Assembly: GCA_043814985.1 (NCBI GenBank)
Contig: JBDRJK010000014.1
Coordinates: 1-64,000 of the forward strand
Source: Candidatus Aenigmatarchaeota archaeon
Lineage (GTDB): Archaea > Aenigmatarchaeota > Aenigmatarchaeia > Aenigmatarchaeales > Aenigmatarchaeaceae
Direction of reading: 5' to 3'
Length of the DNA: 64,000 nucleotides
A model generated the notes under the pieces. That model searched no databases, was not told where the DNA came from, and worked only from the letters and a program-made list of their open reading frames with translations. Every line of letters begins with the position of its first letter. Position 1 is the stretch's first letter. This document shows, one piece after another, positions 6,669 to 24,114 of the stretch. A program made the position numbers and the translations under genes.

Positions 6669-7664
6669 ATGGATTTCGAAATCATTCTTCAAAAAATAAT
6701 TGAGAAGGGAAGCCTCTCAAAAGAGGAAACTGAGAAGAGGATAATTGAGAAGCAGGAAGAGCTATCCAACCTTGTTTCCAAGGAAGGGGCGGCCTACATA
6801 ATCGCAAAGGAAATGGGAATCGAACTGTTCCCAGAAAAGACTCAGACGGAAAGAAGGCTCGAGATAAAGAACATCATCCCGCAGATAAGGGACCTCAATC
6901 TCAACGCAAGAATTGTCAACATATTCCCCGTGAAGGAGTTCGAGAGCAAGGGAAGGAAGGGGGAGGTTGCAAGCATAATTCTAGGGGACCAGACAGGAAC
7001 AATAAGAATGTCCCTATGGGACCAGCAGACAGAAATGATTGACAAACTAAAGCCTGGTATGGCAGTTGAGGTATTCGGCGGCTACACAAGGGAGAACGGG
7101 ATTGGAGGCGTTGAGATAAGACTGAGCGGAAGGGGCGGCGTTAAGATTCTAGAACAGTCAGACCTGCCTGAAATAAGCAAGATGAGAACTGAGAAGAAGA
7201 CAAGAAGCAACATAATAGATGTGAAAGAGGGCGAGTTCACAGAACTAAGGGCAGCTGTTGTGCAATTGTTCGAGACAAACTTCTTTTACGAGGTGTGCCC
7301 TGAATGCGGCAGCAGGGTAAAGGAGGATACTGGGTTCAAATGCGACCAACACGGAGAGGTGAAGCCTGCACAGGCAATTGTGCTGTCGGGAGTGATTGAT
7401 GATGGGACTGGAAACATGAGGGCAGTGTTCTTCAGGGATAACGCGCTGAAACTGATAGGGTTGGATAATGAAGAAGCTGTGAAAAGGCAGGACTCATTGC
7501 TGCAAGACCTGGATATTTTAGGAAAGGAGTTCTTAATGTCAGGAAGGGTCAGAAGGAACAAGATGTTCAACAGGCTGGAGTTTGTTGCGAATAATGTCAA
7601 GGATGTTGACATAGAAAGTGAGGCAAATAAACTAATAAATAATTTGGCAACAAAGGTGTATTAG
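6669..7664 (+). CDS. rpa: replication protein A (OB folds plus Zn finger)
   Basis: GDQTGTIRMSLWD and DDGTGNMRAVFF OB folds; CPEC...CDQH Zn site. Confidence 0.9.
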   Translation: MDFEIILQKIIEKGSLSKEETEKRIIEKQEELSNLVSKEGAAYIIAKEMGIELFPEKTQTERRLEIKNIIPQIRDLNLNARIVNIFPVKEFESKGRKGEVASIILGDQTGTIRMSLWDQQTEMIDKLKPGMAVEVFGGYTRENGIGGVEIRLSGRGGVKILEQSDLPEISKMRTEKKTRSNIIDVKEGEFTELRAAVVQLFETNFFYEVCPECGSRVKEDTGFKCDQHGEVKPAQAIVLSGVIDDGTGNMRAVFFRDNALKLIGLDNEEAVKRQDSLLQDLDILGKEFLMSGRVRRNKMFNRLEFVANNVKDVDIESEANKLINNLATKVY

Positions 7665-7673
7665 GTTATTCTT

Positions 7674-8630
7674 ATGACTAAAAAAATCAAAGATGTAGCT
7701 GACTTGCCCGGAGTTGGGGAGAAGGTAGGGGAGAAGCTGAAGAAGGCAGGCTACATCGACCTGATGAGCATTGCAGCAGCATCACCGAAAGAACTAGGTG
7801 AAACAGCCAATGTAGGGGAAATGACTGCAACAAAAATAATCAATACTGCCAGGGATGAGCTGGAAATCGGCTTTGAGAAGGCTACCGAAATCTACGAGAG
7901 AAGGCAGCAAATCAAAAGGATAAAAAGCGGCAGCAAAAACCTGGATCAGTTGTTAGGCGGCGGCTTTGAGACACAGGCTGTTGTAGAATTCCATGGAGCG
8001 TTCGGTTCCGGAAAGACGCAAGCCGGCTTCCAGATAGCTATCAACGCACAGCTGCCTGAGGAGCAGGGAGGAATAGACGGCAACTGTATTTTTCTGGATG
8101 CAGAAAGCACTTTCAGGCCTGGCAGGATAAAGCAGATGGCAGAGGCAATGGACTTGGATCCTAAAAAAATCTTGGAGAATATTTACGTTGCGAGATGCTA
8201 CAATTCCGATCACCAGATGATAATGGCCGAGAAGATAGGGGAAATGGTAAAGAAGAAGAACATCAAGCTTGTCATTGTTGACAGCGTCACATCAAACTTC
8301 AGGGCCGACTTCTCAGGAAGGGGGGAGCTTTCAGCAAGGCAGCAGAAACTGAACAGGCACCTGCACACCCTGCAGAGGCTGGCTGACGTTTACGGTGTTG
8401 CTGTCTACATAACCAACCAGGTCATGTCAAGACCCAACATATTGTTCGGGGATCCGACAGCGCCAATAGGCGGTCACATACTCGGACATTTCTCAACACA
8501 TCGATTATATTTGAGAAGGTCAAAGGGAAACACAAGAATCGCAAGGCTGATTGACTCGCCGAACCTTCCAGCAGGGGAGACGATTTTCCTGATAACCCCA
8601 GAGGGAATAAGGGATCCTGAAGAAAAGTAA
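7674..8630 (+). CDS. radA: DNA repair and recombination protein RadA
   Basis: N-terminal HhH (LPGVG), Walker A GAFGSGKT, VIVDS, GRGELSARQQ, GGHILGH. Confidence 0.97.
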   Translation: MTKKIKDVADLPGVGEKVGEKLKKAGYIDLMSIAAASPKELGETANVGEMTATKIINTARDELEIGFEKATEIYERRQQIKRIKSGSKNLDQLLGGGFETQAVVEFHGAFGSGKTQAGFQIAINAQLPEEQGGIDGNCIFLDAESTFRPGRIKQMAEAMDLDPKKILENIYVARCYNSDHQMIMAEKIGEMVKKKNIKLVIVDSVTSNFRADFSGRGELSARQQKLNRHLHTLQRLADVYGVAVYITNQVMSRPNILFGDPTAPIGGHILGHFSTHRLYLRRSKGNTRIARLIDSPNLPAGETIFLITPEGIRDPEEK

Positions 8631-8633
8631 TTT

Positions 8634-9026
8634 TTAGTGAGCGAAAATAACTCCTGTTACTCTATTATTAAGTTTTGGAACAGCATGGTAGAATGGTTCG
8701 TTTTCTGGATGTTTTACATAATCAGTTTTTTGTTTTTCTGAAGAACGATTTGTTAAATATGTTTCTATTTGTTTTTCAGAAAGCAAACTTACATCTATTG
8801 GATGGTTACAATTTCTGAAGCACCATTCATTACCAGTAAATACCCAATCATCTGGATGAACCCCACAACTTCTTCTTTGTGTCTCACAACCTTTGAGGTC
8901 TCCTCCATCAGAACCTTTTCCTGGCTGGCATGGCTGCTCATAAACACCTTTCGTAACTCTTGTAATTTTAAAAGAATAATCCATTTCTGAGTTTCTAAGT
9001 ATTTCCCTTAAAATGGAACCATGCAT
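8634..9026 (-). CDS. hypothetical Cys/His-containing protein
   Basis: 130-aa ORF downstream of the PRC-barrel gene. Confidence 0.5.
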   Translation of the reverse strand: MHGSILREILRNSEMDYSFKITRVTKGVYEQPCQPGKGSDGGDLKGCETQRRSCGVHPDDWVFTGNEWCFRNCNHPIDVSLLSEKQIETYLTNRSSEKQKTDYVKHPENEPFYHAVPKLNNRVTGVIFAH

Positions 9027-9042
9027 ATTTATCTCTTATCAA

Positions 9043-9303
9043 TCAAACAATGTCTTTCTCAGCAACAATTATGAAGTCCCCGACAGATCTCACTGCAGAG
9101 AATGGAATAAGCATCCTTCCCTTGTCATCCTCGCCGAGTTTCAAATCCAATGCTTGCCTTGTAGGCTCTGAAATAATGATGTTCATCAATTCGCCCGACT
9201 CTGTTATGAAGTTGACATCGCCCACAACGCCGAACTTTCTTCCAGTATCCTCAGAAACTATGACTTTACCGACCATGTCTTTGGCTCTTAATTTTTCTGG
9301 CAT
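9043..9303 (-). CDS. PRC-barrel domain protein (CdpB-like)
   Basis: MVGKVIVSEDTGRKFGVVGDV...IPFSAVRSVGDFIIV; GGTGA RBS. Confidence 0.85.
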   Translation of the reverse strand: MPEKLRAKDMVGKVIVSEDTGRKFGVVGDVNFITESGELMNIIISEPTRQALDLKLGEDDKGRMLIPFSAVRSVGDFIIVAEKDIV

Positions 9304-9338
9304 TTAATCACCTTTAGTATAATTTTAAGCGAAGATAT

Positions 9339-9896
9339 TTAAGCTTTTGTGATTTTTTCCATCAATTTAACCACCCTGCTTTCAAGCTGTTTTTTCGTGA
9401 GTTTTGAGTTGTCTATGGTGTAATCGGCCTTTTTTATTGTCTCCATTAAGCCGTGGCTCTTCTCCAGCTTGTCCCTGTGCCTGAGATACTCCTTGTTCTC
9501 CTGCTTGCCGAACCTCTTCCTCTCTAATTCCCGTTCAGCCCTCACTTTGAAGGAGGATTTTATGAAAATTATGACCGGCTTGCCCTTGTAGGTTTCCCTA
9601 AGGTACTTGAACTGTTCCGGGGCCCTGAAGCCATCAAGGACTATAAGGTCTTTCTTTGACTTTTTTACCTTGCCCCACAGCCTCCTTGAAAGAAGCTTCT
9701 CCCTTCCATTGACATTGAACCAGTGAGCGGCTATTGAATCGTTCTCAGGCGTGTATTTCAGGCCCCTTCGCTTGATCTCGTCCCTTATTATGTCGCCGCT
9801 CTTGAAGGAGTCAGCATTGAACATCTTCTTTATGATTTCAGCAGCAAGGCTCTTACCAGAACCTGGAAGACCGACTATGACAATAATCTTCTTCAT
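9339..9896 (-). CDS. P-loop nucleotide kinase (dephospho-CoA kinase-like)
   Basis: VGLPGSGKS, GDIIRDE, LDGFR, ADYTIDN. Confidence 0.8.
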   Translation of the reverse strand: MKKIIVIVGLPGSGKSLAAEIIKKMFNADSFKSGDIIRDEIKRRGLKYTPENDSIAAHWFNVNGREKLLSRRLWGKVKKSKKDLIVLDGFRAPEQFKYLRETYKGKPVIIFIKSSFKVRAERELERKRFGKQENKEYLRHRDKLEKSHGLMETIKKADYTIDNSKLTKKQLESRVVKLMEKITKA

Positions 9897-9941
9897 AGAA
9901 CTATTTAATTAAAGTTAAAATAAAAAGAAGGGGAAAGTCTA

Positions 9942-10064
9942 TTATTTGTGATTTGCTATTTTTATTTTCCCTTGATAAACATTTGCATACAACCCATCAG
10001 ATAGGGCATTGTTCTGAGGTATTCCTTTTGGGACACAACCAACAGTTTTGTATGTATTCACCAT
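9942..10064 (-). CDS. small protein, 40 aa (MVNTYKTVGCVPKGIPQNNALSDGLYANVYQGKIKIANHK)
   Basis: Below the ORF-track cutoff; GGTGG RBS upstream of ATG; T-rich terminator-like run downstream. Confidence 0.5.
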   Translation of the reverse strand: MVNTYKTVGCVPKGIPQNNALSDGLYANVYQGKIKIANHK

Positions 10065-10169
10065 ATATAACCACCATATAGTAGTATATATTAGCTAATA
10101 TATAAAGATATCTATTATTTACTATCCATTAGTGATAAATATAAATACTAGCTCTTATGAATAATTATT

Positions 10170-10445
10170 ATGAAAGCCGCATATATTGAAGATGTAAAAA
10201 AATTATCAGGTATAATGCAGATGGGAATTATTGGTTTGAATACAGATGAGAAGAGAACAATAATCAAAACGCCTGCAGGAAATTATGCCACTAGAACAAG
10301 CTTATTCAATAGTATAGGATATGGAACAGATTCTCCATTAGAAGCTGCTGGAATAGGTTTAGATCTTAGCGAAAACAAAGGCGACTATAATATTCTCAAA
10401 AAGTATGAAAAACCTAGAAAGTTTCCATTCTCATATATTGTCTGA
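10170..10445 (+). CDS. hypothetical protein
   Basis: 91-aa ORF after an AT-rich TATA-like promoter. Confidence 0.55.
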   Translation: MKAAYIEDVKKLSGIMQMGIIGLNTDEKRTIIKTPAGNYATRTSLFNSIGYGTDSPLEAAGIGLDLSENKGDYNILKKYEKPRKFPFSYIV

Positions 10446-10462
10446 ACTCTCACATTTCAGAA

Positions 10463-11557
10463 TCAGTTCTCAACGAAAAGGGTCTTTGTCTTAGGTGTAA
10501 GAGCGTACATGAAGGCCTTGCCTCTGCCCTCTCTTTGCACATAACCGTCCAGCATCAGCCTTCTTAGGATGTTGTTGACAGACCTTATTGCATGGCCTTT
10601 TGACTTGTAGCCCTTCATTTCCAATTCCTCAACAATTGCTGTAGGAGTCAACCAGTCCTTAGTAGACAAAAGCTTCAAAATGCTTCTCTGTTTGTGGGGC
10701 AAGCTCCTGAACTGCTCCTCAGAAGGAGGTTTTGGCATAAATGTAACCACAGGCTCATTAACTCTCACTTTTGGAAGCTCGATTTCCTTGTGCTCCTCTA
10801 TATCCTTCAAGGTTATGGCGTCCAGGTTCTTCTCCAAGGCTGAGTTGACCAACCTGTCGCAGAGCTTCAGAACCTCCCTTGGGAAACCACCAGTCCTCTT
10901 GTATATCATATCTATGGCATCGTCTGTGAAAGGCAAAATACCCCTTCCCCCAGCACTCTCAATTCTCTTCTTGATAAGCTCCTTGGTCTCAGGTTTGTCC
11001 AAGGAAACCAAGGTTATCCTTGTTGTTATTCTCTGATCCAAGGTCTCCAATTCAGACATCTTCTCCTCAAGAACAGGCATGCCAGCCATTACCAGGCTTA
11101 TGTTGTCTATCTGATCAGATAGGACTCTGAGCCACTCTAGAACATCCTTGTTGGTCTCATGAGTCTCGTCAAGAAGGAACACTAGATGCTGGCCTTTGAG
11201 CTTCTTGTTAATATAATTAGGAAGGTTGTACAAAGAGGGCTTTTTGCTCAATATTCTCTCCCAAAAACTAAAGCCAAACAAATCAGTGAACAAAGAAACA
11301 AACTCGTTAGGGTTCTCTGGAGGCTTGCTAACATATAGTTTTGAGGCATCATAGTTGTTTTCCACCCATTTCAGGAAGGTTGTCTTTCCAGCTCCTGTTC
11401 TTCCTGTTATAATAGCAACTTTGTGCTTGTTCTCTATGTGTTTCAAGGCAGCCTTGACTTGCTCCTCATAACCTACAAATAATTTTGGGTCAATTCTAAG
11501 AACAAAGGGATTTTCTTTCCATCCCCATTTTGAAAAATTTCCATTCATAATGTTCAC
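10463..11557 (-). CDS. AAA+ ATPase (ExeA/TniB/initiator-clade-like) with C-terminal winged helix
   Basis: WGWKENPF, Walker A GRTGAGKT, Walker B LLDETH, R-finger LDQRI, TGGFPREV, C-terminal wHTH (TPTAIVEEL...GYVQREGRGKAFMY). Confidence 0.85.
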   Translation of the reverse strand: MNIMNGNFSKWGWKENPFVLRIDPKLFVGYEEQVKAALKHIENKHKVAIITGRTGAGKTTFLKWVENNYDASKLYVSKPPENPNEFVSLFTDLFGFSFWERILSKKPSLYNLPNYINKKLKGQHLVFLLDETHETNKDVLEWLRVLSDQIDNISLVMAGMPVLEEKMSELETLDQRITTRITLVSLDKPETKELIKKRIESAGGRGILPFTDDAIDMIYKRTGGFPREVLKLCDRLVNSALEKNLDAITLKDIEEHKEIELPKVRVNEPVVTFMPKPPSEEQFRSLPHKQRSILKLLSTKDWLTPTAIVEELEMKGYKSKGHAIRSVNNILRRLMLDGYVQREGRGKAFMYALTPKTKTLFVEN

Positions 11558-11953
11558 ATAATATTCACGTGAAGGATATATTTAAGCTTTTCTCTCATTC
11601 ACGTGAAGTAAATATTCACATGTGAAGATTTTGTGAAGATTTTGTGAACATCATGTGAAGGTTTTCTAAGAAAAATGGAAAACTATATGAAGTTAACGTG
11701 AAGTAAGGTATTTTCACATGTTTTTTGAGTTTGTGAGATTTAACACGTGAAGGTCTTGAGAACTTCACATAATATTCACGTGAATTTCATATGTTCACGT
11801 GTGAAGTTAACGTGAAGTTAATAGTATGTTACATTATATATAGAGTATTGTTTTGCTCTTCACGTGAAGATAAGGGCATAGTGTGTAGAATGTGTGATAT
11901 ATGTGGGATATTCATGTGAACATGAATGAAGATTGTATGAACATTCACGTGAA
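11553..11953. repeat. array of TTCACGTGAA palindromes and variants (iteron/operator-like)
   Basis: Perfect copies at 11564, 11598, 11775, 11859, 11944; variants at 11615, 11693, 11742, 11794, 11807, 11911; 21-bp direct repeat at 11553 and 11764. Confidence 0.92.
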
Positions 11954-12069
11954 CAAAAAAATCGTCTTTTAGCGTTTAAAATGACTTAAAGATACGTCAT
12001 TTAGCTTAAATTTTACTAAGAAATAGGTTTATATACTTCTAAGTACCTTATATATAACAGGCGTTATAA

Positions 12070-12360
12070 ATGGGCTCTGGAATTCATAAAAAAACCATTA
12101 AAAATATAGCAAGAATGCTGGTTTTGCTCAGAGAAAGAGGTCCAATGCATATTAGAGGTATTGCAAAGGCTCTGGAACTGAATCCATTCATTGTCACAAA
12201 CATCATAGACCATTACCTGGATTTTTTTATAGAGGTAAGGAACATAGACCAGTTCGGCTTTAGGGTTAAACTGATCAACTTGAAGCCTGGAAAGGAAGAA
12301 ACTACTCTAGAGGATGTTTTGAAATATATTAAAGTCAAAAGGAAAATCAAGGGCAACTAA
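12070..12360 (+). CDS. small winged helix-turn-helix protein
   Basis: LLRERGPMHIRGIAKALELNPFIVTNII HTH pattern; divergent from the ATPase across the repeat array. Confidence 0.75.
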   Translation: MGSGIHKKTIKNIARMLVLLRERGPMHIRGIAKALELNPFIVTNIIDHYLDFFIEVRNIDQFGFRVKLINLKPGKEETTLEDVLKYIKVKRKIKGN

Positions 12361-12701
12361 ATCTTTTTAATCTCCTTGGCTATTATCTCCAAATCTCCCT
12401 TATACTCATCTACCCTTCCTAGAACAGCCACTTCCTCACCAATCTCCAGGTCATAGGCTTGATCAATATTGGAGTTCTTGAAGGCAACAACAGTTATCTC
12501 TCCTGTGTTGTCAGCCACTTTCATGAAGACATGATCATCCCTGCTAACATAGACAGAGGTCACCATGCCGCTTATCCTCTCTATCTGACCTATTTTCAGC
12601 TTCTTTATCTCTATTGTCTCTTCTGTCAGAATTAGGGAAATGAAGAAAAGGGCAATTATGCCTATAACAGCTGTTATGATAGAAATCTTCAGGATGTCCA
12701 T
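12357..12701 (-). CDS. membrane-anchored OB-fold nucleic-acid-binding protein
   Basis: N-terminal TM segment, then ADNTGEITVVAF...GRVDEYKGDLEIIA; start set at MDILK. Confidence 0.75.
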   Translation of the reverse strand: MDILKISIITAVIGIIALFFISLILTEETIEIKKLKIGQIERISGMVTSVYVSRDDHVFMKVADNTGEITVVAFKNSNIDQAYDLEIGEEVAVLGRVDEYKGDLEIIAKEIKKI

Positions 12702-12790
12702 AATTCTAGAAGAATGTTCTTTGGGTTCAATTTGTCTTACCACTTGAAGTGGTGTTATCTTTATATACTACTAAGAAGTAATTATTTAAT

Positions 12791-12952
12791 ATGAATTATC
12801 AGACTCAAGAAACCCAAAGCTATGTAAATGACCCAAAATGGAATAAGGAAGTAAGCATTGCTGTAGAAATGGCTTGTTTAAGGGGAGATATAAAATCTGT
12901 TGAAAGTAATCCTTTGGCCAGAAAACTGGCATTGGAAGCATTGAATTTTTAA
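12791..12952 (+). CDS. small hypothetical protein, 53 aa
   Basis: ATG..TAA fills the intergenic gap (MNYQTQETQSYVNDPKWNKEV...ALNF); TTTATATA box upstream. Confidence 0.45.
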   Translation: MNYQTQETQSYVNDPKWNKEVSIAVEMACLRGDIKSVESNPLARKLALEALNF

Positions 12953-12953
12953 T

Positions 12954-13499
12954 TCATAATTCTATCTTAAAAACTTCTTCATAGACAGGACCTTTAGGAG
13001 TTAATTTTGATTGAAAGATATTTATCTTATCTATCTTCATCTTACCAATCTCAACATCTTCCAATTTTTCCATCAAAGCCATAATTTCATTCTTGTTCCT
13101 TCCTGATCTGACCCTGCCCAAGGTCAAATGGGGAACAAAGCGGCTATCCTTTTCAAAACCAAGAGTAATTAGGGAGTTTGATATCATCTCTTCCAGAGCT
13201 TTGAAGGTCTGAAGCCCTTCTTTAACACCCAACCATACAACCTTGACATAGTTTTTGCTGGGAAAGGCACCAATCCCTGAAATGTTTACTTCAAAGGGCT
13301 TGAATTGTGTGGCAACTTTCTCAAGAACAACCTTTACCTTATTGATTTTTTCCTCTTCCATCTCCCCAAAGAACCTCAGGTTGAAGTGCAGGTTCTCCTT
13401 TTCAACAAGTTTTACATCAAACTTATAGAATTTTTCCTGTACCCTGAATATTCTCGTCTTCAAAACATTAGGAACTGAGATTCCGAGGAAGGCCCTCAT
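12954..13499 (-). CDS. thpR: RNA 2',3'-cyclic phosphodiesterase (2H family, LigT/ThpR)
   Basis: MRAFLGI, ENLHFNLRFFG, GAFP, FVPHLTLGR, SKLTPKGPVY. Confidence 0.92.
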   Translation of the reverse strand: MRAFLGISVPNVLKTRIFRVQEKFYKFDVKLVEKENLHFNLRFFGEMEEEKINKVKVVLEKVATQFKPFEVNISGIGAFPSKNYVKVVWLGVKEGLQTFKALEEMISNSLITLGFEKDSRFVPHLTLGRVRSGRNKNEIMALMEKLEDVEIGKMKIDKINIFQSKLTPKGPVYEEVFKIEL

Positions 13500-13615
13500 A
13501 AAAATAGTATAATGTCAACATGATTTAAACATCTATTTCTTAAAACACAAATCATTATAAATGATTAAGATGTATATCTCTTACCGGTTAAGAATTGTGG
13601 TCAAAATTTAAGACA

Positions 13616-13631
13616 ACACAACATGTTGTGG
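13616..13631. promoter_or_regulatory. NrdR box
   Basis: ACACAACATGTTGTGG matches the consensus acaCwAtATaTwGtgt; a second TTGTGG half-site lies 31 bp upstream (13595). Confidence 0.8.
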
Positions 13632-13639
13632 TTTTTCCT

Positions 13640-14077
13640 ATGTTTTGCCCTTACTGTAATTCATCTAAAACTAAAGTTGTTGACAAAAGAGGCACTGATG
13701 AGAATAGGTCAATAAGAAGGCGAAGGGAATGTCTGGGCTGTAAGGAAAGGTTCACGACCTACGAGCAAATAAAGAGTCCCATAGTCGTAATAAAGAGGAA
13801 TAAAACAAAGGAAAGTTTCAGCAGGGAAAAGATCAAAAGTGGCGTCTTAAAGGCTCTTAATGGAAGGCCTATAAGCGAGAAGAAACTGGAGAAATTCCTT
13901 GACGAAATTGAGGCTGAGATAAAAAAGATGGAATGTAAGGAGATAAAGACCAAGATAATCGGCGAGATCGTGACGGAAAGGCTGAAAAAATTGGACAAGG
14001 TCGCATATGTCAGGTTCATGTCTCATTTCAACAAAGATTTCAAAGATGTAAAAACTTTCAAAAAGGTATTAAGGTAG
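13640..14077 (+). CDS. nrdR: transcriptional repressor NrdR
   Basis: MFCPYC...IRRRRECLGCKERFTTYE Zn ribbon plus ATP cone, DKVAYVRF; start moved to MFCPYC. Confidence 0.95.
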   Translation: MFCPYCNSSKTKVVDKRGTDENRSIRRRRECLGCKERFTTYEQIKSPIVVIKRNKTKESFSREKIKSGVLKALNGRPISEKKLEKFLDEIEAEIKKMECKEIKTKIIGEIVTERLKKLDKVAYVRFMSHFNKDFKDVKTFKKVLR

Positions 14078-14084
14078 TGGTTAA

Positions 14085-16151
14085 ATGGTTAGTAGAATAA
14101 GAAAAAGGGATGGAAGAATTGTCCCGTTCGACAAGGAAAAAATAACGATTGCTATTTTCAAGGCGGCCCAGGCTGTGGGAGGCTCTGACAGGAAAAAGGC
14201 AGAAGAACTAGCAGAGCAGGTTGCCGAGCTTGCAAGTAAAAAGTATAACGGTAACATAGCGACAGTTGAGAACATCCAGGATATTGTGGAGAAGGTATTG
14301 GTTGAGGACGGCCACTACAAAACCGCAAAAGCTTACATGTTATATAGGGAGGAGCACAAGAGACTCAGGGATGTGAAAGGTCTGCTTCTAGATGTTGGCG
14401 ACGTCATTAACGGCTACATATCAAAGAATGAATGGAGAATAAAGGAGAACGCCAATGTTGACTTTTCTTATTCAGGCATGATGTGGCATGGCATTGGGAC
14501 AATCACAGCATATTATGCATTGAACCATGTCTATCCAAAAGAAATTGCCAAAGCACATACAGAAGGTGATTTCCATTTGCACAATCTATCAATGAGCCTT
14601 TGCGGCTATTGCGCAGGTTGGAGTTTGGGGCAACTATTGACAGAGGGTTTTAACAAAGTTCCGGGAAAAGTTGAATCAGGCCCTCCCAAACACCTAAGAA
14701 CTGCTGTTGGCCAGATGGTCAACTTCATCGGAGTTTTACAGAATGAATGGGCAGGAGCCCAGGCATTCAGCTCGTTTGATACTTATCTTGCTCCTTATGT
14801 TAGGGCTGATAATCTTAGCTACAAACAAATCAAGCAGAACATCCAGGAGTATGTGTACGGCATGAACATAACTTCCCGTTGGGGCGGACAGACACCTTTC
14901 TCCAACATAACTCTGGACTGGACTGTCCCTGAGGACTTAAAGAACCAGCCTGCTGTTGTTGGCGGCAAGCCCGTTGGCAATACCTATGCTGACTATCAGG
15001 AAGAAATGAATCTAATCAACAAGGCCTTCATTGAAGTGATGAGTGGGGGAGATGCTAATGGAAGTGTTTTCACATGGCCCATTCCGACTTACAACATAAC
15101 AAAGGATCTGGATTGGGATAATGAGAACCTTGGTGCATTGTTCAATATGACCGCAAAATACGGTCTGCCATATTTCCAGAATTTCATAAAAAGCGACCTG
15201 AAGCCTTCTGATGTCAGGGCAATGTGCTGCAGGCTGCAATTAGATTTGAAAGAGTTGAGGAACAAGACTGGTGGGCTGTTCGGTTTCGGGGAATCCACTG
15301 GAAGCATTGGAGTTGTCACAGTCAACATGCCAAGGATAGGCTACTCCTCGAAGAACGAGGAACAATTCATGGAAAAATTGGAAAGAATGATATACCTCGC
15401 AAAGGAGTCCCTTGAAATTAAAAGAAAGTTGGTTAACAGGATAATGGGAATTGGAATGCTGCCATTTTCAAAAAGGTTTCTTGGAAACTTTGACCATCAC
15501 TTCTCTACAATAGGCCTAATTGGAATGAACGAGGCGTGCCTGAACTTCTTAGGGAAGGACATCACAACTGAAGAGGGTAGGAATTTCTCACTCAAGGTCC
15601 TTGACTTCATGAGGGGAAGGCTGAAGGAGATACAGGAGGAAACAGGCCACATATATAATCTGGAAGCCACTCCTGGAGAAGGGACAACCTTCAGATTGGC
15701 AAAAATGGACAAGAAAAAATACCCCAAAATAATAGCAGCTGGAAACGGTGTCCCATACTACACCAACTCCACACAACTTCCTGTAAACCACACTGATGAC
15801 CTTTTCTTGGCTTTGAAGCACCAGGAAGAACTGCAGAGAAAATATACTGGGGGAACAGTATTCCACAGCTTCCTTGGTGAATCACCGGACAACGGGGAGA
15901 CCACAAAGCAGCTGGTAAAGAAGATAGCAAGCAACTTCGCGGTGCCTTACTTCACAATAACACCCACATTCTCAGTGTGCAAGCAGCACGGTTACATTAA
16001 GGGCGAGCACTTCAACTGCCCGACATGTAAAGCAAGAGCAGAGGTCTACTCAAGAGTTGTTGGATACATAAGACCTGTGCAAAGCTGGAACGCAGGGAAG
16101 CAAAGGGAATTCAAAGACAGGCTGGAATTTAAGGTTTCTAAGTTTAATTAA
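14085..16151 (+). CDS. nrdD: anaerobic (class III) ribonucleoside-triphosphate reductase with ATP cone
   Basis: ATP cone IRKRDGRIVPFD, GYCAGW, AMCCRL, CxxH/CxxC Zn site, glycyl radical loop YSRVVGY. Confidence 0.97.
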   Translation: MVSRIRKRDGRIVPFDKEKITIAIFKAAQAVGGSDRKKAEELAEQVAELASKKYNGNIATVENIQDIVEKVLVEDGHYKTAKAYMLYREEHKRLRDVKGLLLDVGDVINGYISKNEWRIKENANVDFSYSGMMWHGIGTITAYYALNHVYPKEIAKAHTEGDFHLHNLSMSLCGYCAGWSLGQLLTEGFNKVPGKVESGPPKHLRTAVGQMVNFIGVLQNEWAGAQAFSSFDTYLAPYVRADNLSYKQIKQNIQEYVYGMNITSRWGGQTPFSNITLDWTVPEDLKNQPAVVGGKPVGNTYADYQEEMNLINKAFIEVMSGGDANGSVFTWPIPTYNITKDLDWDNENLGALFNMTAKYGLPYFQNFIKSDLKPSDVRAMCCRLQLDLKELRNKTGGLFGFGESTGSIGVVTVNMPRIGYSSKNEEQFMEKLERMIYLAKESLEIKRKLVNRIMGIGMLPFSKRFLGNFDHHFSTIGLIGMNEACLNFLGKDITTEEGRNFSLKVLDFMRGRLKEIQEETGHIYNLEATPGEGTTFRLAKMDKKKYPKIIAAGNGVPYYTNSTQLPVNHTDDLFLALKHQEELQRKYTGGTVFHSFLGESPDNGETTKQLVKKIASNFAVPYFTITPTFSVCKQHGYIKGEHFNCPTCKARAEVYSRVVGYIRPVQSWNAGKQREFKDRLEFKVSKFN

Positions 16152-16846
16152 TGATTATGATAATAAAGGGCCTACAGAAACAGACTTTGTTAGACTATCC
16201 GGATAGATTAGCTTGCACGATATTCACTTTCGGCTGCAACTTCCGCTGCGGCTTCTGCCACAACCCAGAGCTTGTTGTTGAGGATAGAAGGGAAGCAATA
16301 AAGGAAGATTATATTCTTGATTTCTTGAAAGAGAGGAAAGAATTCCTTGATGCTGTATGCATAACAGGTGGGGAGCCGACACTGAATAAAGACCTTCCAA
16401 CTTTCATTAGGAAGATTAAAGAGTTAGGATTTTTTGTTAAGCTTGATACTAATGGAAGTAATCCTGAAATGTTAAAAGAATTGATAGAAGTTGGTCTGCT
16501 CGATTATATTGCAATGGACATCAAGGCACCTCTGGAAAAGTATGACATTACAACCAATGTAGAAGTAAAGAAAGAAGATATAGAGAAGAGTGTAAACATA
16601 ATTAAAAAGTTCCCGAATTATGAGTTCAGAACAACTGTTGTTCCAGGTCTCTTTAATGAAAGTGATGCAAAGTCAATTGGTGAATGGTTAAATGGTTCAA
16701 AGAGATTCTACATACAGCAATTCAGAGGAATAAAAACGCTTGATAAGAATTACACCGGAAAGAAATCATTTTCAAAAGAGGAACTTGAGAAATTTTGCAA
16801 CATAATGAAACCTTTTTTTGAGAAATGTGAAATAAGAGGCATCTAG
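16151..16846 (+). CDS. nrdG: class III RNR activating radical SAM protein
   Basis: DYP, GCNFRCGFCHNP, ITGGEPT, KLDTNG; follows nrdD. Confidence 0.95.
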   Translation: MIMIIKGLQKQTLLDYPDRLACTIFTFGCNFRCGFCHNPELVVEDRREAIKEDYILDFLKERKEFLDAVCITGGEPTLNKDLPTFIRKIKELGFFVKLDTNGSNPEMLKELIEVGLLDYIAMDIKAPLEKYDITTNVEVKKEDIEKSVNIIKKFPNYEFRTTVVPGLFNESDAKSIGEWLNGSKRFYIQQFRGIKTLDKNYTGKKSFSKEELEKFCNIMKPFFEKCEIRGI

Positions 16847-22606: not shown

Positions 22607-22900
22607 ACACCCCCCCATTACTTGTCGAACTCGAGTTTATAATTAAAAATATTTTTTTATATAATTATATATAACAATGTTATATGAAATGAAGGTTAAC
22701 CTTTTAGTTTGACCTTTTCTTCTCATGAAGATTGTAGTAGAAACCATAGGGTGTTTACTTCTTGTGGAAATATAACAGCGTTATTTATGTTCACATAACC
22801 TTCACAGAGGTGTTTTCCTTAGGAAATGGGGGGGTTAACGTGAAGTAAATTATATATATGTTAATATGTTTAATTACAAAAGAAACAAAGGTTTCATTTG
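22607..22900. other. probable chromosomal replication origin (oriC)
   Basis: Directly upstream of cdc6; inverted ACCCCCCCATT (22609) / AATGGGGGGGT (22825) G-strings; ORB-like TTTCCTTAGGAAA (22814), TAGAAACCATAGGGT and TTGTGGAAA; AT-rich tract at about 22637-22690. Confidence 0.75.
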
Positions 22901-22917
22901 AAATATCGGTGACTTTT

Positions 22918-24114
22918 TTGAACAAAGACGAAAACATATTTACTAAATTCTTACAGACTAAACCTATCTTTTCTAATAGGGACGTGTTAACTATTTCTTT
23001 CACACCAGAAACAATACCCCACAGGGAGAAGCAAGTTAATGATCTTGGAAGAATTTTGACTCCTGCTCTGAAGAATGGAAGACCCAGTAATGTATTCCTA
23101 TATGGAAGAACAGGTACAGGGAAGACATTGGTTTCCAGATTTGTAGGTTCTGAATTGGAAAAAATGAGCGAGCAGAATGGAAACAACGTGAAGACCATCT
23201 ATGTTAATTGTAAAATGAAGAGAGTGGCTGACACAGAGTATAGATTATTGGCAGAGTTATCTAAGAAATTAGGGAAAACAGTCCCATTTACTGGTTTACC
23301 AACAGACCAAGTATACCAAATATTCTTCGAAACCTTGGAAAAACAGGGCAAGACAATAATCCTGATTATTGATGAGATAGATGCCTTAGTCCAGAAGACT
23401 GGTGATGAGATTCTCTACAACCTGACTAGGATCAACCAGGAGCTGAAAAACTCAAAATTATCCATAATCGGCATAACAAACAACCTTGGTTTCATAGAAA
23501 GCTTGGATCCAAGGGTGAAAAGCTCCCTGAGTGAGGAAGAGCTCATATTTCCACCTTACAATGCCTTGCAGCTACAGGAAATCCTGAGAAAAAGGTCTGC
23601 AGTAGCGTTCGTATCAGATGTTCTTGGTGTTGGTGTCATAGAGAAGTGCGCTGCTCTGGCTGCTCAGGAGCATGGAGATGCAAGAAGAGCCTTGGATTTG
23701 TTAAGAGTTTCAGGAGAGTTAGCAGAGAGGAACGCAGATGAGAAGGTAAGCATAAAGCATGTTGATTTGGCAGAGGAAAAAATAGATGTAGATAGGGTAG
23801 TGGAGACGGTGAAGGCCCAGCCAAGACAGAGCCAAGCTGTCCTCTTTTCAATGGTTCAGCTAGCTGAGAAGAACAGAGAAATACAAACTGGTGAGGTCTT
23901 TGACAAATATAATGATTTATGCAGGGAACAGGGGCTGAAGCCTTTAACAACTAGAAGGGTATCTGACCTAATATCTGAATTGGACCTTTTCGGCATAATA
24001 AACACCAAAATAATATCCAGGGGAAGACATGGAAGGACGAGAGTCATAACACTAAGTCTGTCTGATACTGTCTACAACAAGTTAAAAAGTCTTTTAGAAG
24101 AGATATTCATATGA
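22918..24114 (+). CDS. cdc6: Orc1/Cdc6 replication initiator
   Basis: PETIPHRE, YGRTGTGKT, IIDEID, LDPRVKSSL, HGDARRALDLLR, C-terminal wHTH; TTG start after GGTGA RBS chosen over ORF-track 22858. Confidence 0.97.
   Translation: MNKDENIFTKFLQTKPIFSNRDVLTISFTPETIPHREKQVNDLGRILTPALKNGRPSNVFLYGRTGTGKTLVSRFVGSELEKMSEQNGNNVKTIYVNCKMKRVADTEYRLLAELSKKLGKTVPFTGLPTDQVYQIFFETLEKQGKTIILIIDEIDALVQKTGDEILYNLTRINQELKNSKLSIIGITNNLGFIESLDPRVKSSLSEEELIFPPYNALQLQEILRKRSAVAFVSDVLGVGVIEKCAALAAQEHGDARRALDLLRVSGELAERNADEKVSIKHVDLAEEKIDVDRVVETVKAQPRQSQAVLFSMVQLAEKNREIQTGEVFDKYNDLCREQGLKPLTTRRVSDLISELDLFGIINTKIISRGRHGRTRVITLSLSDTVYNKLKSLLEEIFI

Follow-up and report, generated by a model that had tools for sequence, protein, structure and literature searches.

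The first 64 kb of a 109-kb contig (JBDRJK010000014.1) from a Candidatus Aenigmatarchaeota archaeon, referred to below as the window, encode an AAA+ ATPase with a C-terminal Cdc6-type winged helix, and a 400-bp array of short repeats lies directly upstream of its gene. The genome (G000) comprises 808 kb in 21 contigs and is 91% complete; close homologues of its proteins are catalogued under Aenigmarchaeota or Aenigmatarchaeota, which belong to the DPANN archaea. Our analysis demonstrates that array and ATPase are linked as cis and trans partners, that the repeats are phased, that the protein combines the fold of an origin-binding factor with intact ATPase motifs, and that the array is located near the canonical origin of replication (oriC), which itself carries sites of the array type. 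The conserved array and ATPase near the origin point to an undescribed origin-linked DNA-protein machine. In the following, GTGAA or TTCAC is called a half site, and TTCACGTGAA is composed of two half sites head to head. The elements of the locus are these:

10463..11557, minus strand: AAA+ ATPase with C-terminal Cdc6-type winged helix, 364 amino acids (aa) when read from GTG.
11553..11953, no strand: the array; its roughly 24 GTGAA/TTCAC half sites contain the five perfect TTCACGTGAA palindromes.
11564..11585, minus strand: promoter-proximal palindrome (11564-11573), with a TATA-like box (TTAAATATAT, minus strand, 11576-11585) on one side and the start codon of the ATPase on the other, as read from the sequence.
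11622..11659, plus strand: four GTGAA half sites at exact 11-bp steps (GTGAAGATTTT units).
11688-11704 and 11802-11818, plus strand: two copies of TGAAGTTAACGTGAAGT, of which there are two in the whole genome.

A preliminary description of this DNA, made from the letters alone, had reported five palindromes, many TTCAC/GTGAA variants, two longer direct repeats and a C-poor tract, and each of these is present where it was placed. Exact copies of TTCACGTGAA start at 11564, 11598, 11775, 11859 and 11944; the expected number in the 64-kb window is 0.09, and five copies were reached in 0 of 100 shuffles. When up to one mismatch is allowed, the window holds nine copies, eight in the array (three of them with one mismatch) and one at 22835. 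Since five of the six exact copies in the genome are in the array (the sixth is at C19:148305), a uniform scatter of the motif is excluded. The variants amount to 14 GTGAA and 10 TTCAC, that is, 24 half sites between 11500 and 12070 (570 bp), where the genome averages 0.93 per 500 bp (sd 1.08). This is the densest cluster in the genome: the seven densest 500-bp windows, with 7-24 half sites, all lie at C14:11201-11801, and the best elsewhere contains 6. The direct repeats are TTCACATAATATTCACGTGAA, at 11553 and 11764, and TGAAGTTAACGTGAAGT, both occurring twice genome-wide. The genome has three copies of the 12-mer GTTAACGTGAAG, which is part of the TGAAGTTAACGTGAAGT copies: two are in the array and one is next to an origin recognition box (ORB) of oriC. 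The C-poor tract has 8 C among 121 bases (11820-11940), and the intergenic region between the ATPase gene and a small winged helix-turn-helix (wHTH) gene measures 512 bp at 30% GC.

The array had also been described as overlapping the GTG start of the ATPase gene. The GTG at 11555-11557 does overlap a TTCAC half site; as the start codon, however, the ATG at 11546-11548, giving 361 aa, is more likely, because it is favoured by the alignment of homologues and by an existing 361-aa protein entry. The TATA-like box at 11576-11585 may serve as the ATPase promoter, judging from its sequence, and the same order of a palindrome followed by TATTTAA is also present in L006, L008 and L015. A search against Rfam returned one chance miRNA match only (E 0.42). 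The idea that CACGTG is depleted was discarded, as the window contains 9 copies against 3.2 expected and the genome outside the array is just mildly low. The sixth exact TTCACGTGAA, at C19:148305, has a further GTGAAG after it and a TATA-like box immediately downstream, in front of an operon for an L35Ae-like protein and a KaiC/RecA-like ATPase (both identified by eye). The array reader may have another target here.

The comparison covered 61 nearer relatives and a phylum sample of 201 genomes; all the comparative counts span related genomes and are therefore not independent events. The ATPase occurs in 54 of the 61 relatives, mostly as one strong match with 41-93% identity, and a profile search detects it in 142 of the 201 genomes across Aenigmatarchaeota. 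Orthologous loci keep the palindrome array. For the order-level set, 30 loci were fetched, 28 of them with upstream DNA, and sites were counted within 900 bp upstream of the ATPase; 27 of the 28 contain 2-7 exact TTCACGTGAA and 10-29 half sites there, and 1-13 half sites in the remaining 2.4-2.6 kb. At the exceptional locus, L016, the array starts about 760 bp further on, with a double-motif LAGLIDADG homing endonuclease gene (PF00961, 4e-17; L016:2584-3348, minus strand) between the ATPase start and the array. A second set comprised 20 further loci, 15 from other orders of the class and 5 from the same order, whose ATPases are 38-57% identical. At least one exact TTCACGTGAA is present in 15 of these 20, with up to 8 copies, and half sites number 2-39 per 1200 bp; the weakest loci are L047 and L052, and the ATPase frame of the latter has a stop codon.

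A common layout recurs, which reads from the ATPase start as one or two palindromes, GTGAAGATTTT-type direct repeats, the TTTGTGAGA element, a cluster of mixed orientation and distal palindromes. A simple two-arm inverted layout was rejected as a rule, since the orientation strings differ between loci and families. The neighbours on the far side of the array vary (wHTH, LigT, OB protein), while the ATPase is constant.

The spacing of the half sites is strongly constrained. Among same-strand neighbour spacings of up to 40 bp at 50 loci, 247 of 624 are exactly 11 bp, and secondary peaks appear at 21-22 and 31-33 bp; the half sites thus share one helix face. To express this phasing as a pattern, we used the triplet GTGAA-N5-7-GTGAA-N5-7-GTGAA, with the reversed pattern as control. 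The triplet is found in 97 of 145 genomes of ATPase-bearing families and in 1 of 56 genomes of families f8, f13, f22, f23, f27 and f30, in which the ATPase was not found (in f22, 1 of 42 genomes has it); the control matches 6 of the 201 genomes. The triplet matches listed adjoin the ATPase coordinates. In the families without a detected ATPase, exact TTCACGTGAA is at background, with 0 of 9 genomes in f23 and mostly 0-1 copies in f22. The same linkage is visible in a complete genome (G144; 874,869 bp, 56% GC), whose densest half-site window is directly upstream of the ATPase and whose 7 phased pairs are all within 1.6 kb of the ATPase gene, the control giving 0. A small phased GTGAAG run apart from the ATPase locus was noticed in two genomes of family f3 (G029:C3:2367-2416 and G034:C56:3336-3374).

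The motifs of the ATPase are intact: among the homologues, little or no variation is seen in Walker A (G52-T59), Walker B (D130/E131), R176 or the GGFPR motif (R227). An AlphaFold (AF2) model has a mean predicted local distance difference test (pLDDT) score of 92 and consists of a five-stranded AAA+ base, a lid, a disordered linker (262-273) and a winged helix of high confidence. The Walker motifs, arginine finger, sensor-2 and C-terminal wHTH named in the preliminary description are thus borne out by conservation and by the model. Between strands 72-76 and 125-129, the model has three helices, a trait of the initiator clade of AAA+ proteins.

Sequence and structure place this protein differently. 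By Pfam, it passes as AAA_22 (PF13401, 2.2e-14, 54.3 versus a cut-off of 27), and the scan gave no match to Cdc6_C or Cdc6_lid. The best NCBIfam model is the ExeA-like TIGR03015 (8.5e-32, 110.6 bits), which remains below its cut-off of 324.5, and the Orc1/Cdc6 model TIGR02928 fails with 18.8 bits against 181.3. When a profile of 46 homologues was compared with the PDB sequences, MuB (8xvb, 2.9e-8) and the Vibrio TnsC (VchTnsC, 2.4e-7) were matched, residues 272-342 matched the MecI winged helix, and no Cdc6 was among the best 60 matches listed. In contrast, Foldseek places archaeal Orc1/Cdc6 on top (2qby_A, 1.4e-12). An aligner independent of Foldseek yields Z values of 19.2 to Cdc6 and 18.3 to Orc1-1 over 315-326 residues, 18.0 to MuB and 17.7 to ShCAST TnsC over 232-237 residues with root-mean-square deviations (rmsd) of 3.6-3.7, and about 15 to DnaA domain III. 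With hhalign, the genome's own Cdc6 is aligned at a probability of 89.9% (E 1.7e-6) over 303 columns, collinearly from the P-loop to the wing of the winged helix. The ATPase is therefore a protein of the Orc1/Cdc6 domain plan within the initiator branch of AAA+, with a core nearest to ExeA/MuB/TnsC, and stands outside the curated Orc1/Cdc6 family. This agrees with the preliminary description, which had proposed a Cdc6/Orc1 domain order around a MuB/TnsC-like core in a protein that is neither ParA nor canonical Cdc6.

Weaker paralogue matches aside, the gene is mostly present as one high-scoring copy per genome, and a kinase-like gene adjoins it in 24 of 30 loci. One paralogue in G000 (C12:4202-5176) is a 336-aa frame with about 25% identity and 137 bits to the family profile; paralogues are also found in G001, G003, G013 and G017. 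A metagenomic relative, L159, is full-length and 33% identical, and no array is present in its 135-bp upstream region (a single case). A search with one distant relative (P0213) yielded, besides this metagenomic sequence, bacterial ExeA-like loci alone among the genome contigs. Look-alike clusters of 350-410 aa in the ESM Atlas belong to Woesearchaeota, Nitrososphaerota, Thermoplasmatota and Microcaldota.

The ATPase is likely, with good confidence, to bind its own array. Its recognition helix, HA(I/V)RSxNNILxRL, is almost invariant across the class, and the rare substitutions within it are accompanied by changes in the array. At the 51 loci with Arg333, the mean ratio GTGAA/(GTGAA+ATGAA) of the array is 0.72 against a background of 0.41. 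Another 8 loci, which all belong to family f10, have M, A, I, F, K or E instead; their ratio is 0.43 against a background of 0.38, and ATGAA-type words such as TCATGAA and ATATGAA dominate the arrays. Within f10 alone, the 7 loci with Arg range from 0.62 to 0.81 and the 8 without it from 0.26 to 0.64. This covariation, although correlative, is the best available evidence that the winged helix of the ATPase reads the array.

A second candidate reader is the small wHTH protein encoded divergently from the ATPase:

11954..12069, plus strand: spacer/promoter of the small wHTH gene, with inverted CGTC/GACG-type repeats of its own that are unlike the array motif.
12070..12360, plus strand: small wHTH protein of 96 aa, with a weak MarR-type match; a divergent neighbour in family f1 only.

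The preliminary description had counted this gene as a part of the module, which does not hold as a constant feature. It adjoins the array at 10 of the 30 loci, which all come from the family of the window, and is found in 28 of the 61 genomes, always 0.4-8 kb from the ATPase. The protein is 31-66% identical across loci with an unchanged motif and so changes far more rapidly than either the motif or the ATPase. The predicted complex of the ATPase with the 96-aa protein scored 0.00, which speaks neither for nor against a pairing. The CGTC/GACG-type repeats, to which comparable elements exist in L006, L008 and L015, may be the operator of the wHTH gene itself. In the protein collection, 12070-12360 is entered as a 71-aa product; the 96-aa reading is preferred because homologues keep the full 96 residues from the upstream ATG.

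ParB was also considered as the array reader and rejected, because relatives of the first ParB_N protein of G000 occur sporadically, in just 4 of the 61 genomes. The ParB_N regions of G000 are C8:28650-30050 (L035) and C9:6088-6700 (L034). The first ParB_N gene is followed by a separate HTH_ParB gene, and the second stands between DNA-methylase-like and terminase-like genes, probably within a mobile element.

The array lies 11 kb from a canonical Orc1/Cdc6 gene and its ORB origin:

22607..22857, no strand: canonical oriC, an inverted ORB pair, CCCCCCCATTACTTGTCGAAC (22610-22630) and TTTTCCTTAGGAAATGGGGGGG (22813-22834), flanking an AT-rich tract.
22790-22805: array-type pair TTCAC-N6-TTCAC within oriC.
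22835-22845: TTAACGTGAAG within oriC, abutting a TATA-like run.
22858..24114, plus strand: canonical Orc1/Cdc6 as the longest open reading frame (TIGR02928, 426.2 bits; Cdc6_C, Cdc6_lid and AAA_22); the real start is probably near 22909-22918.

The boxes of oriC are classical ORBs with G-runs, accompanied by a 40-mer of 2.5% GC and the palindrome TATAACAATGTTATA, and 20 relatives largely retain these elements upstream of cdc6. The nearness to the array is conserved as well, since the distance from the ATPase to orc1/cdc6 is 0.5-32 kb in 29 of the 29 genomes that carry both on one contig. Usually the array faces cdc6, with the ATPase and cdc6 genes pointing apart. Moreover, the array motif recurs inside the origin. 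The only phased half-site pair of G000 outside the array is the one at 22790-22805 (7 pairs in the genome, 1 for the control), and the third copy of GTTAACGTGAAG directly follows the G-run of the cdc6-proximal ORB, against the TATA-like run. At least one ACGTGAA is present in 11 of 21 cdc6-upstream regions, mostly directly after the ORB G-run.

The array itself does not resemble a site of unwinding. Its AT-richest 40-mer in G000 has 17.5% GC, versus 2.5% at oriC, and the median longest window of at most 10% GC is 0 bp in 64 arrays versus 44.5 bp in 20 cdc6-upstream regions. Because an ORB origin with Orc1/Cdc6 is only 11 kb off and most arrays are without an AT tract, the array is not the ordinary origin of the cell. 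The cumulative GC skew of the window has its minimum at about 21-22 kb, by cdc6, and a shallow local dip at the array (about 10-13 kb), with the skew mostly following gene direction. The cumulative skew of G144 follows an irregular course, lowest at 48 kb and highest at 288 kb; cdc6 is at 690 kb and the ATPase at 664 kb. The skew of G144 is uninformative, because neither extreme is near either gene. In the five f22 and f23 genomes checked (e.g. L144-L148), which are without the module, Orc1/Cdc6 reaches just 156-262 bits against at least 390 elsewhere, and the initiation system of these two families may differ. A short Orc1/Cdc6-like gene was also seen in G000 (C1:54827-55597), a 278-aa frame covering model positions 1-277 without the winged helix; it scores 141.7 bits, below the cut-off, and similar matches exist in several genomes of the same family.

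We tentatively interpret the module as an origin-linked control device, in which an accessory factor of Orc1/Cdc6 shape would modulate Orc1/Cdc6 expression or the firing of the origin; we give this reading slightly less than an even chance. In mechanistic terms, we infer that the array is bound by the ATPase, which would oligomerise there, repress its own gene and affect initiation. Its Cdc6-type winged helix would read the GTGAA half sites sequence-specifically, with nucleation on the TTCACGTGAA palindromes. With ATP and the arginine finger, the protein would oligomerise along half sites spaced by 11 bp on one helix face, and a large nucleoprotein complex would form on the 400-bp array in front of the protein's own gene. 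This complex would repress the gene and set the protein level, which is expected because the promoter-proximal palindrome separates the TATA box from the start codon. The same ATPase would occupy the few sites in oriC, on both sides of the cdc6-nearest ORB and against the cdc6 TATA box. The array would accordingly be a high-capacity binding and autoregulatory site of the ATPase, and melting of DNA at the array has no part in such a control device.

Several observations weigh against this interpretation. The AAA+ part of the protein fits ExeA-type models far better than Orc1/Cdc6 models. The covariation with Arg333 is confined to one family (f10), whose members are not independent, and the GTGAA fraction is low despite Arg in L056, L137, L140, L143, L047 and L052. 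The array-type sites within oriC are found in the order of G000 and not in the distant L074, L077, L078 and G144. In one genome, G048, the ATPase is more than 72 kb from either contig end and no canonical cdc6 is present on the contig; there, a stop codon interrupts the ATPase frame and little of the array remains. Finally, 24 sites are far beyond the need of autoregulation, which leaves room for a structural role such as that of a centromere. A more far-reaching proposal, which we regard as doubtful, is an unrecognised chromosome-maintenance system: an AAA+ protein of the ExeA/MuB/TnsC branch with an acquired Cdc6-type winged helix would polymerise from the palindromes along the array. It would serve either as an archaeal centromere, the first to be based on AAA+, or together with Orc1/Cdc6 as an initiator or licensing factor of a new class.

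An origin-proximal centromere, in which the ATPase would nucleate on the palindromes and coat or pair DNA in an ATP-dependent manner to segregate the origin region as ParB-parS or ParR-parC do, seems to us unlikely. It would agree with the position of the array 0.5-32 kb from oriC in 29 genomes, with the many helically phased sites, and with the location of the cis site within the promoter of its own gene. The nearest AAA+ kin by sequence and rmsd, MuB and TnsC, form DNA-coating filaments according to the titles of the PDB entries, and the middle 10 bp are identical to the bacterial parS core given in the listed ParB papers. The flanks of the palindromes, however, are off the 16-bp parS pattern, ParB_N proteins occur in 4 of 61 relatives only, and no ParA, ParM or TubZ-type motor gene is linked to the array, the ParA/MinD-like (AAA_31) genes being on other contigs. 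To our knowledge, no AAA+ partition system has been described, which also counts against a centromere. The array-type sites in oriC, next to the ORB and the cdc6 TATA box, suit regulation better than partition.

We consider a second, non-canonical origin with a dedicated initiator distinctly improbable. Such a pair, similar to oriC3-WhiP of Sulfolobus, would have been captured long ago and kept beside oriC1. According to the review PMC4010727, an initiator gene beside its repeat array is the rule for archaeal origins, and here an AAA+ gene of Orc1/Cdc6 shape with a winged helix directly adjoins its repeats; the fold and the collinear alignment match Cdc6, the sites occur in both orientations, and some arrays (e.g. 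L031 and L130) have long AT-rich spacers. Most arrays nevertheless are without the unwinding tract, as the medians of 0 and 44.5 bp and the GC contents in G000 given above demonstrate. Two origins 0.5-32 kb apart would be redundant, the skew minimum of the window is by cdc6 with just a shallow dip at the array, and the ATPase fails the Orc1/Cdc6 model. Equally improbable in our view is the absence of any chromosome-level role, with the ATPase as an ordinary autoregulated factor with an oversized operator, or with the array read by the 96-aa wHTH protein or by Orc1/Cdc6. The palindrome between the TATA box and the ATPase start codon would be natural for an operator, as would the isolated sites just upstream of TATA-like boxes at cdc6 and at the L35Ae-like/KaiC-like operon, and the small wHTH gene is usually within 0.4-8 kb. 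Against the operator, 20-30 phased sites over 400 bp, kept class-wide, are far beyond known operators. The divergence of the wHTH protein despite a constant motif and its adjacency in one third of the loci (10 of 30) argue against this protein as the reader, and Orc1/Cdc6 has different, classical ORBs as its oriC boxes and is present where the ATPase and the arrays are absent. The conserved nearness to cdc6 also speaks against this explanation as a whole.

The array is enclosed by a cluster of DNA-metabolism genes at window positions 6669-16846:

6669-7664: RPA-like gene.
7674-8630: RadA gene, named by eye.
12954-13499: LigT gene.
13595-14077: NrdR gene.
14085-16846: anaerobic ribonucleotide reductase and its activase, named by eye.

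The literature search, which covered titles and abstract starts outside subscription journals and supplements, found no publication on this ATPase family or on the array. The listed matches for the decamer deal, as far as their titles and abstract starts tell, with parS of bacteria or with unrelated uses. On the same basis, none of the reports on replication origins in Aenigmarchaeota deals with this locus, and none of the listed matches on DPANN Cdc6 and origin recognition boxes deals with this family; a search on archaeal ExeA, winged-helix and AAA+ proteins gave no match. We know of no experimental study on how the small chromosomes of DPANN archaea are started, controlled and segregated. 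The locus offers a clean and testable pair for this purpose, with one protein of nearly invariant recognition helix and one 10-bp site, in a 400-bp array that is unique in each genome and has a fixed place beside the canonical origin. If the ATPase does control Orc1/Cdc6 or origin firing, it would represent a new layer of archaeal replication control; if the array is a centromere, the pair would be a new type of partition machine. The protein is also an evolutionary bridge, in which an AAA+ core with its nearest kin among transposition and secretion-type ATPases has the domain plan of an origin-binding protein.

Among known systems, the module shares its arrangement with the archaeal replicator-initiator pairs. 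As in Orc1/Cdc6-ORB and Sulfolobus oriC3-WhiP, an initiator-shaped gene adjoins its own repeat array (PMC4010727), and AAA+ base, lid and C-terminal winged helix follow in the collinear order of Orc1/Cdc6. The array differs from ORB in its GTGAA/TTCACGTGAA repeats at an 11-bp phase, most arrays are without an AT-rich unwinding tract, and a complete canonical oriC coexists 0.5-32 kb off. MuB/TnsC and the ExeA/GspA-type AAA_22 proteins give the best sequence matches of the ATPase and the low rmsd of 3.6-3.7; unlike them, the array ATPase has a winged helix predicted to be sequence-specific. In contrast to the genes of MuB/TnsC/TniB transposons, its gene is present in a single copy on the chromosome, in conserved synteny, and no transposase gene is close by. 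It also differs from ExeA/GspA in lacking a secretion, exopolysaccharide or peptidoglycan-binding context, PG_binding_1 being found in bacterial relatives only; its neighbours are a kinase-like gene, wHTH, LigT, NrdR/NrdD, RPA and RadA.

The resemblance to bacterial ParB-parS is confined to the central 10 bp of parS, which equal TTCACGTGAA, and to the clustering of sites near the origin. The flanks of 175 palindromes are off the 16-bp parS consensus, and the likely reader here is a winged helix fused to an AAA+ domain rather than a CTPase clamp. Since both flanks and proteins differ, the match of the decamer is taken as coincidence or convergence. In the centromeres of plasmids, such as ParR-parC of R1 and TubR-tubC, the locus promoter contains short repeats that recur about once per helical turn. 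The present array is likewise phased at 11 bp (247/624 spacings) within the promoter of its locus; here, however, no linked motor gene is found among the neighbours and the likely binder is fused to an AAA+ ATPase. DnaA, with its box clusters (the dnaA promoter, datA and DARS), and the Sulfolobus regulator Orc1-2 exemplify AAA+ proteins of the initiator clade that repress themselves and have dense sites off the origin in addition to sites within it. The proposed control device would be alike in plan, with a different lineage and a different motif.

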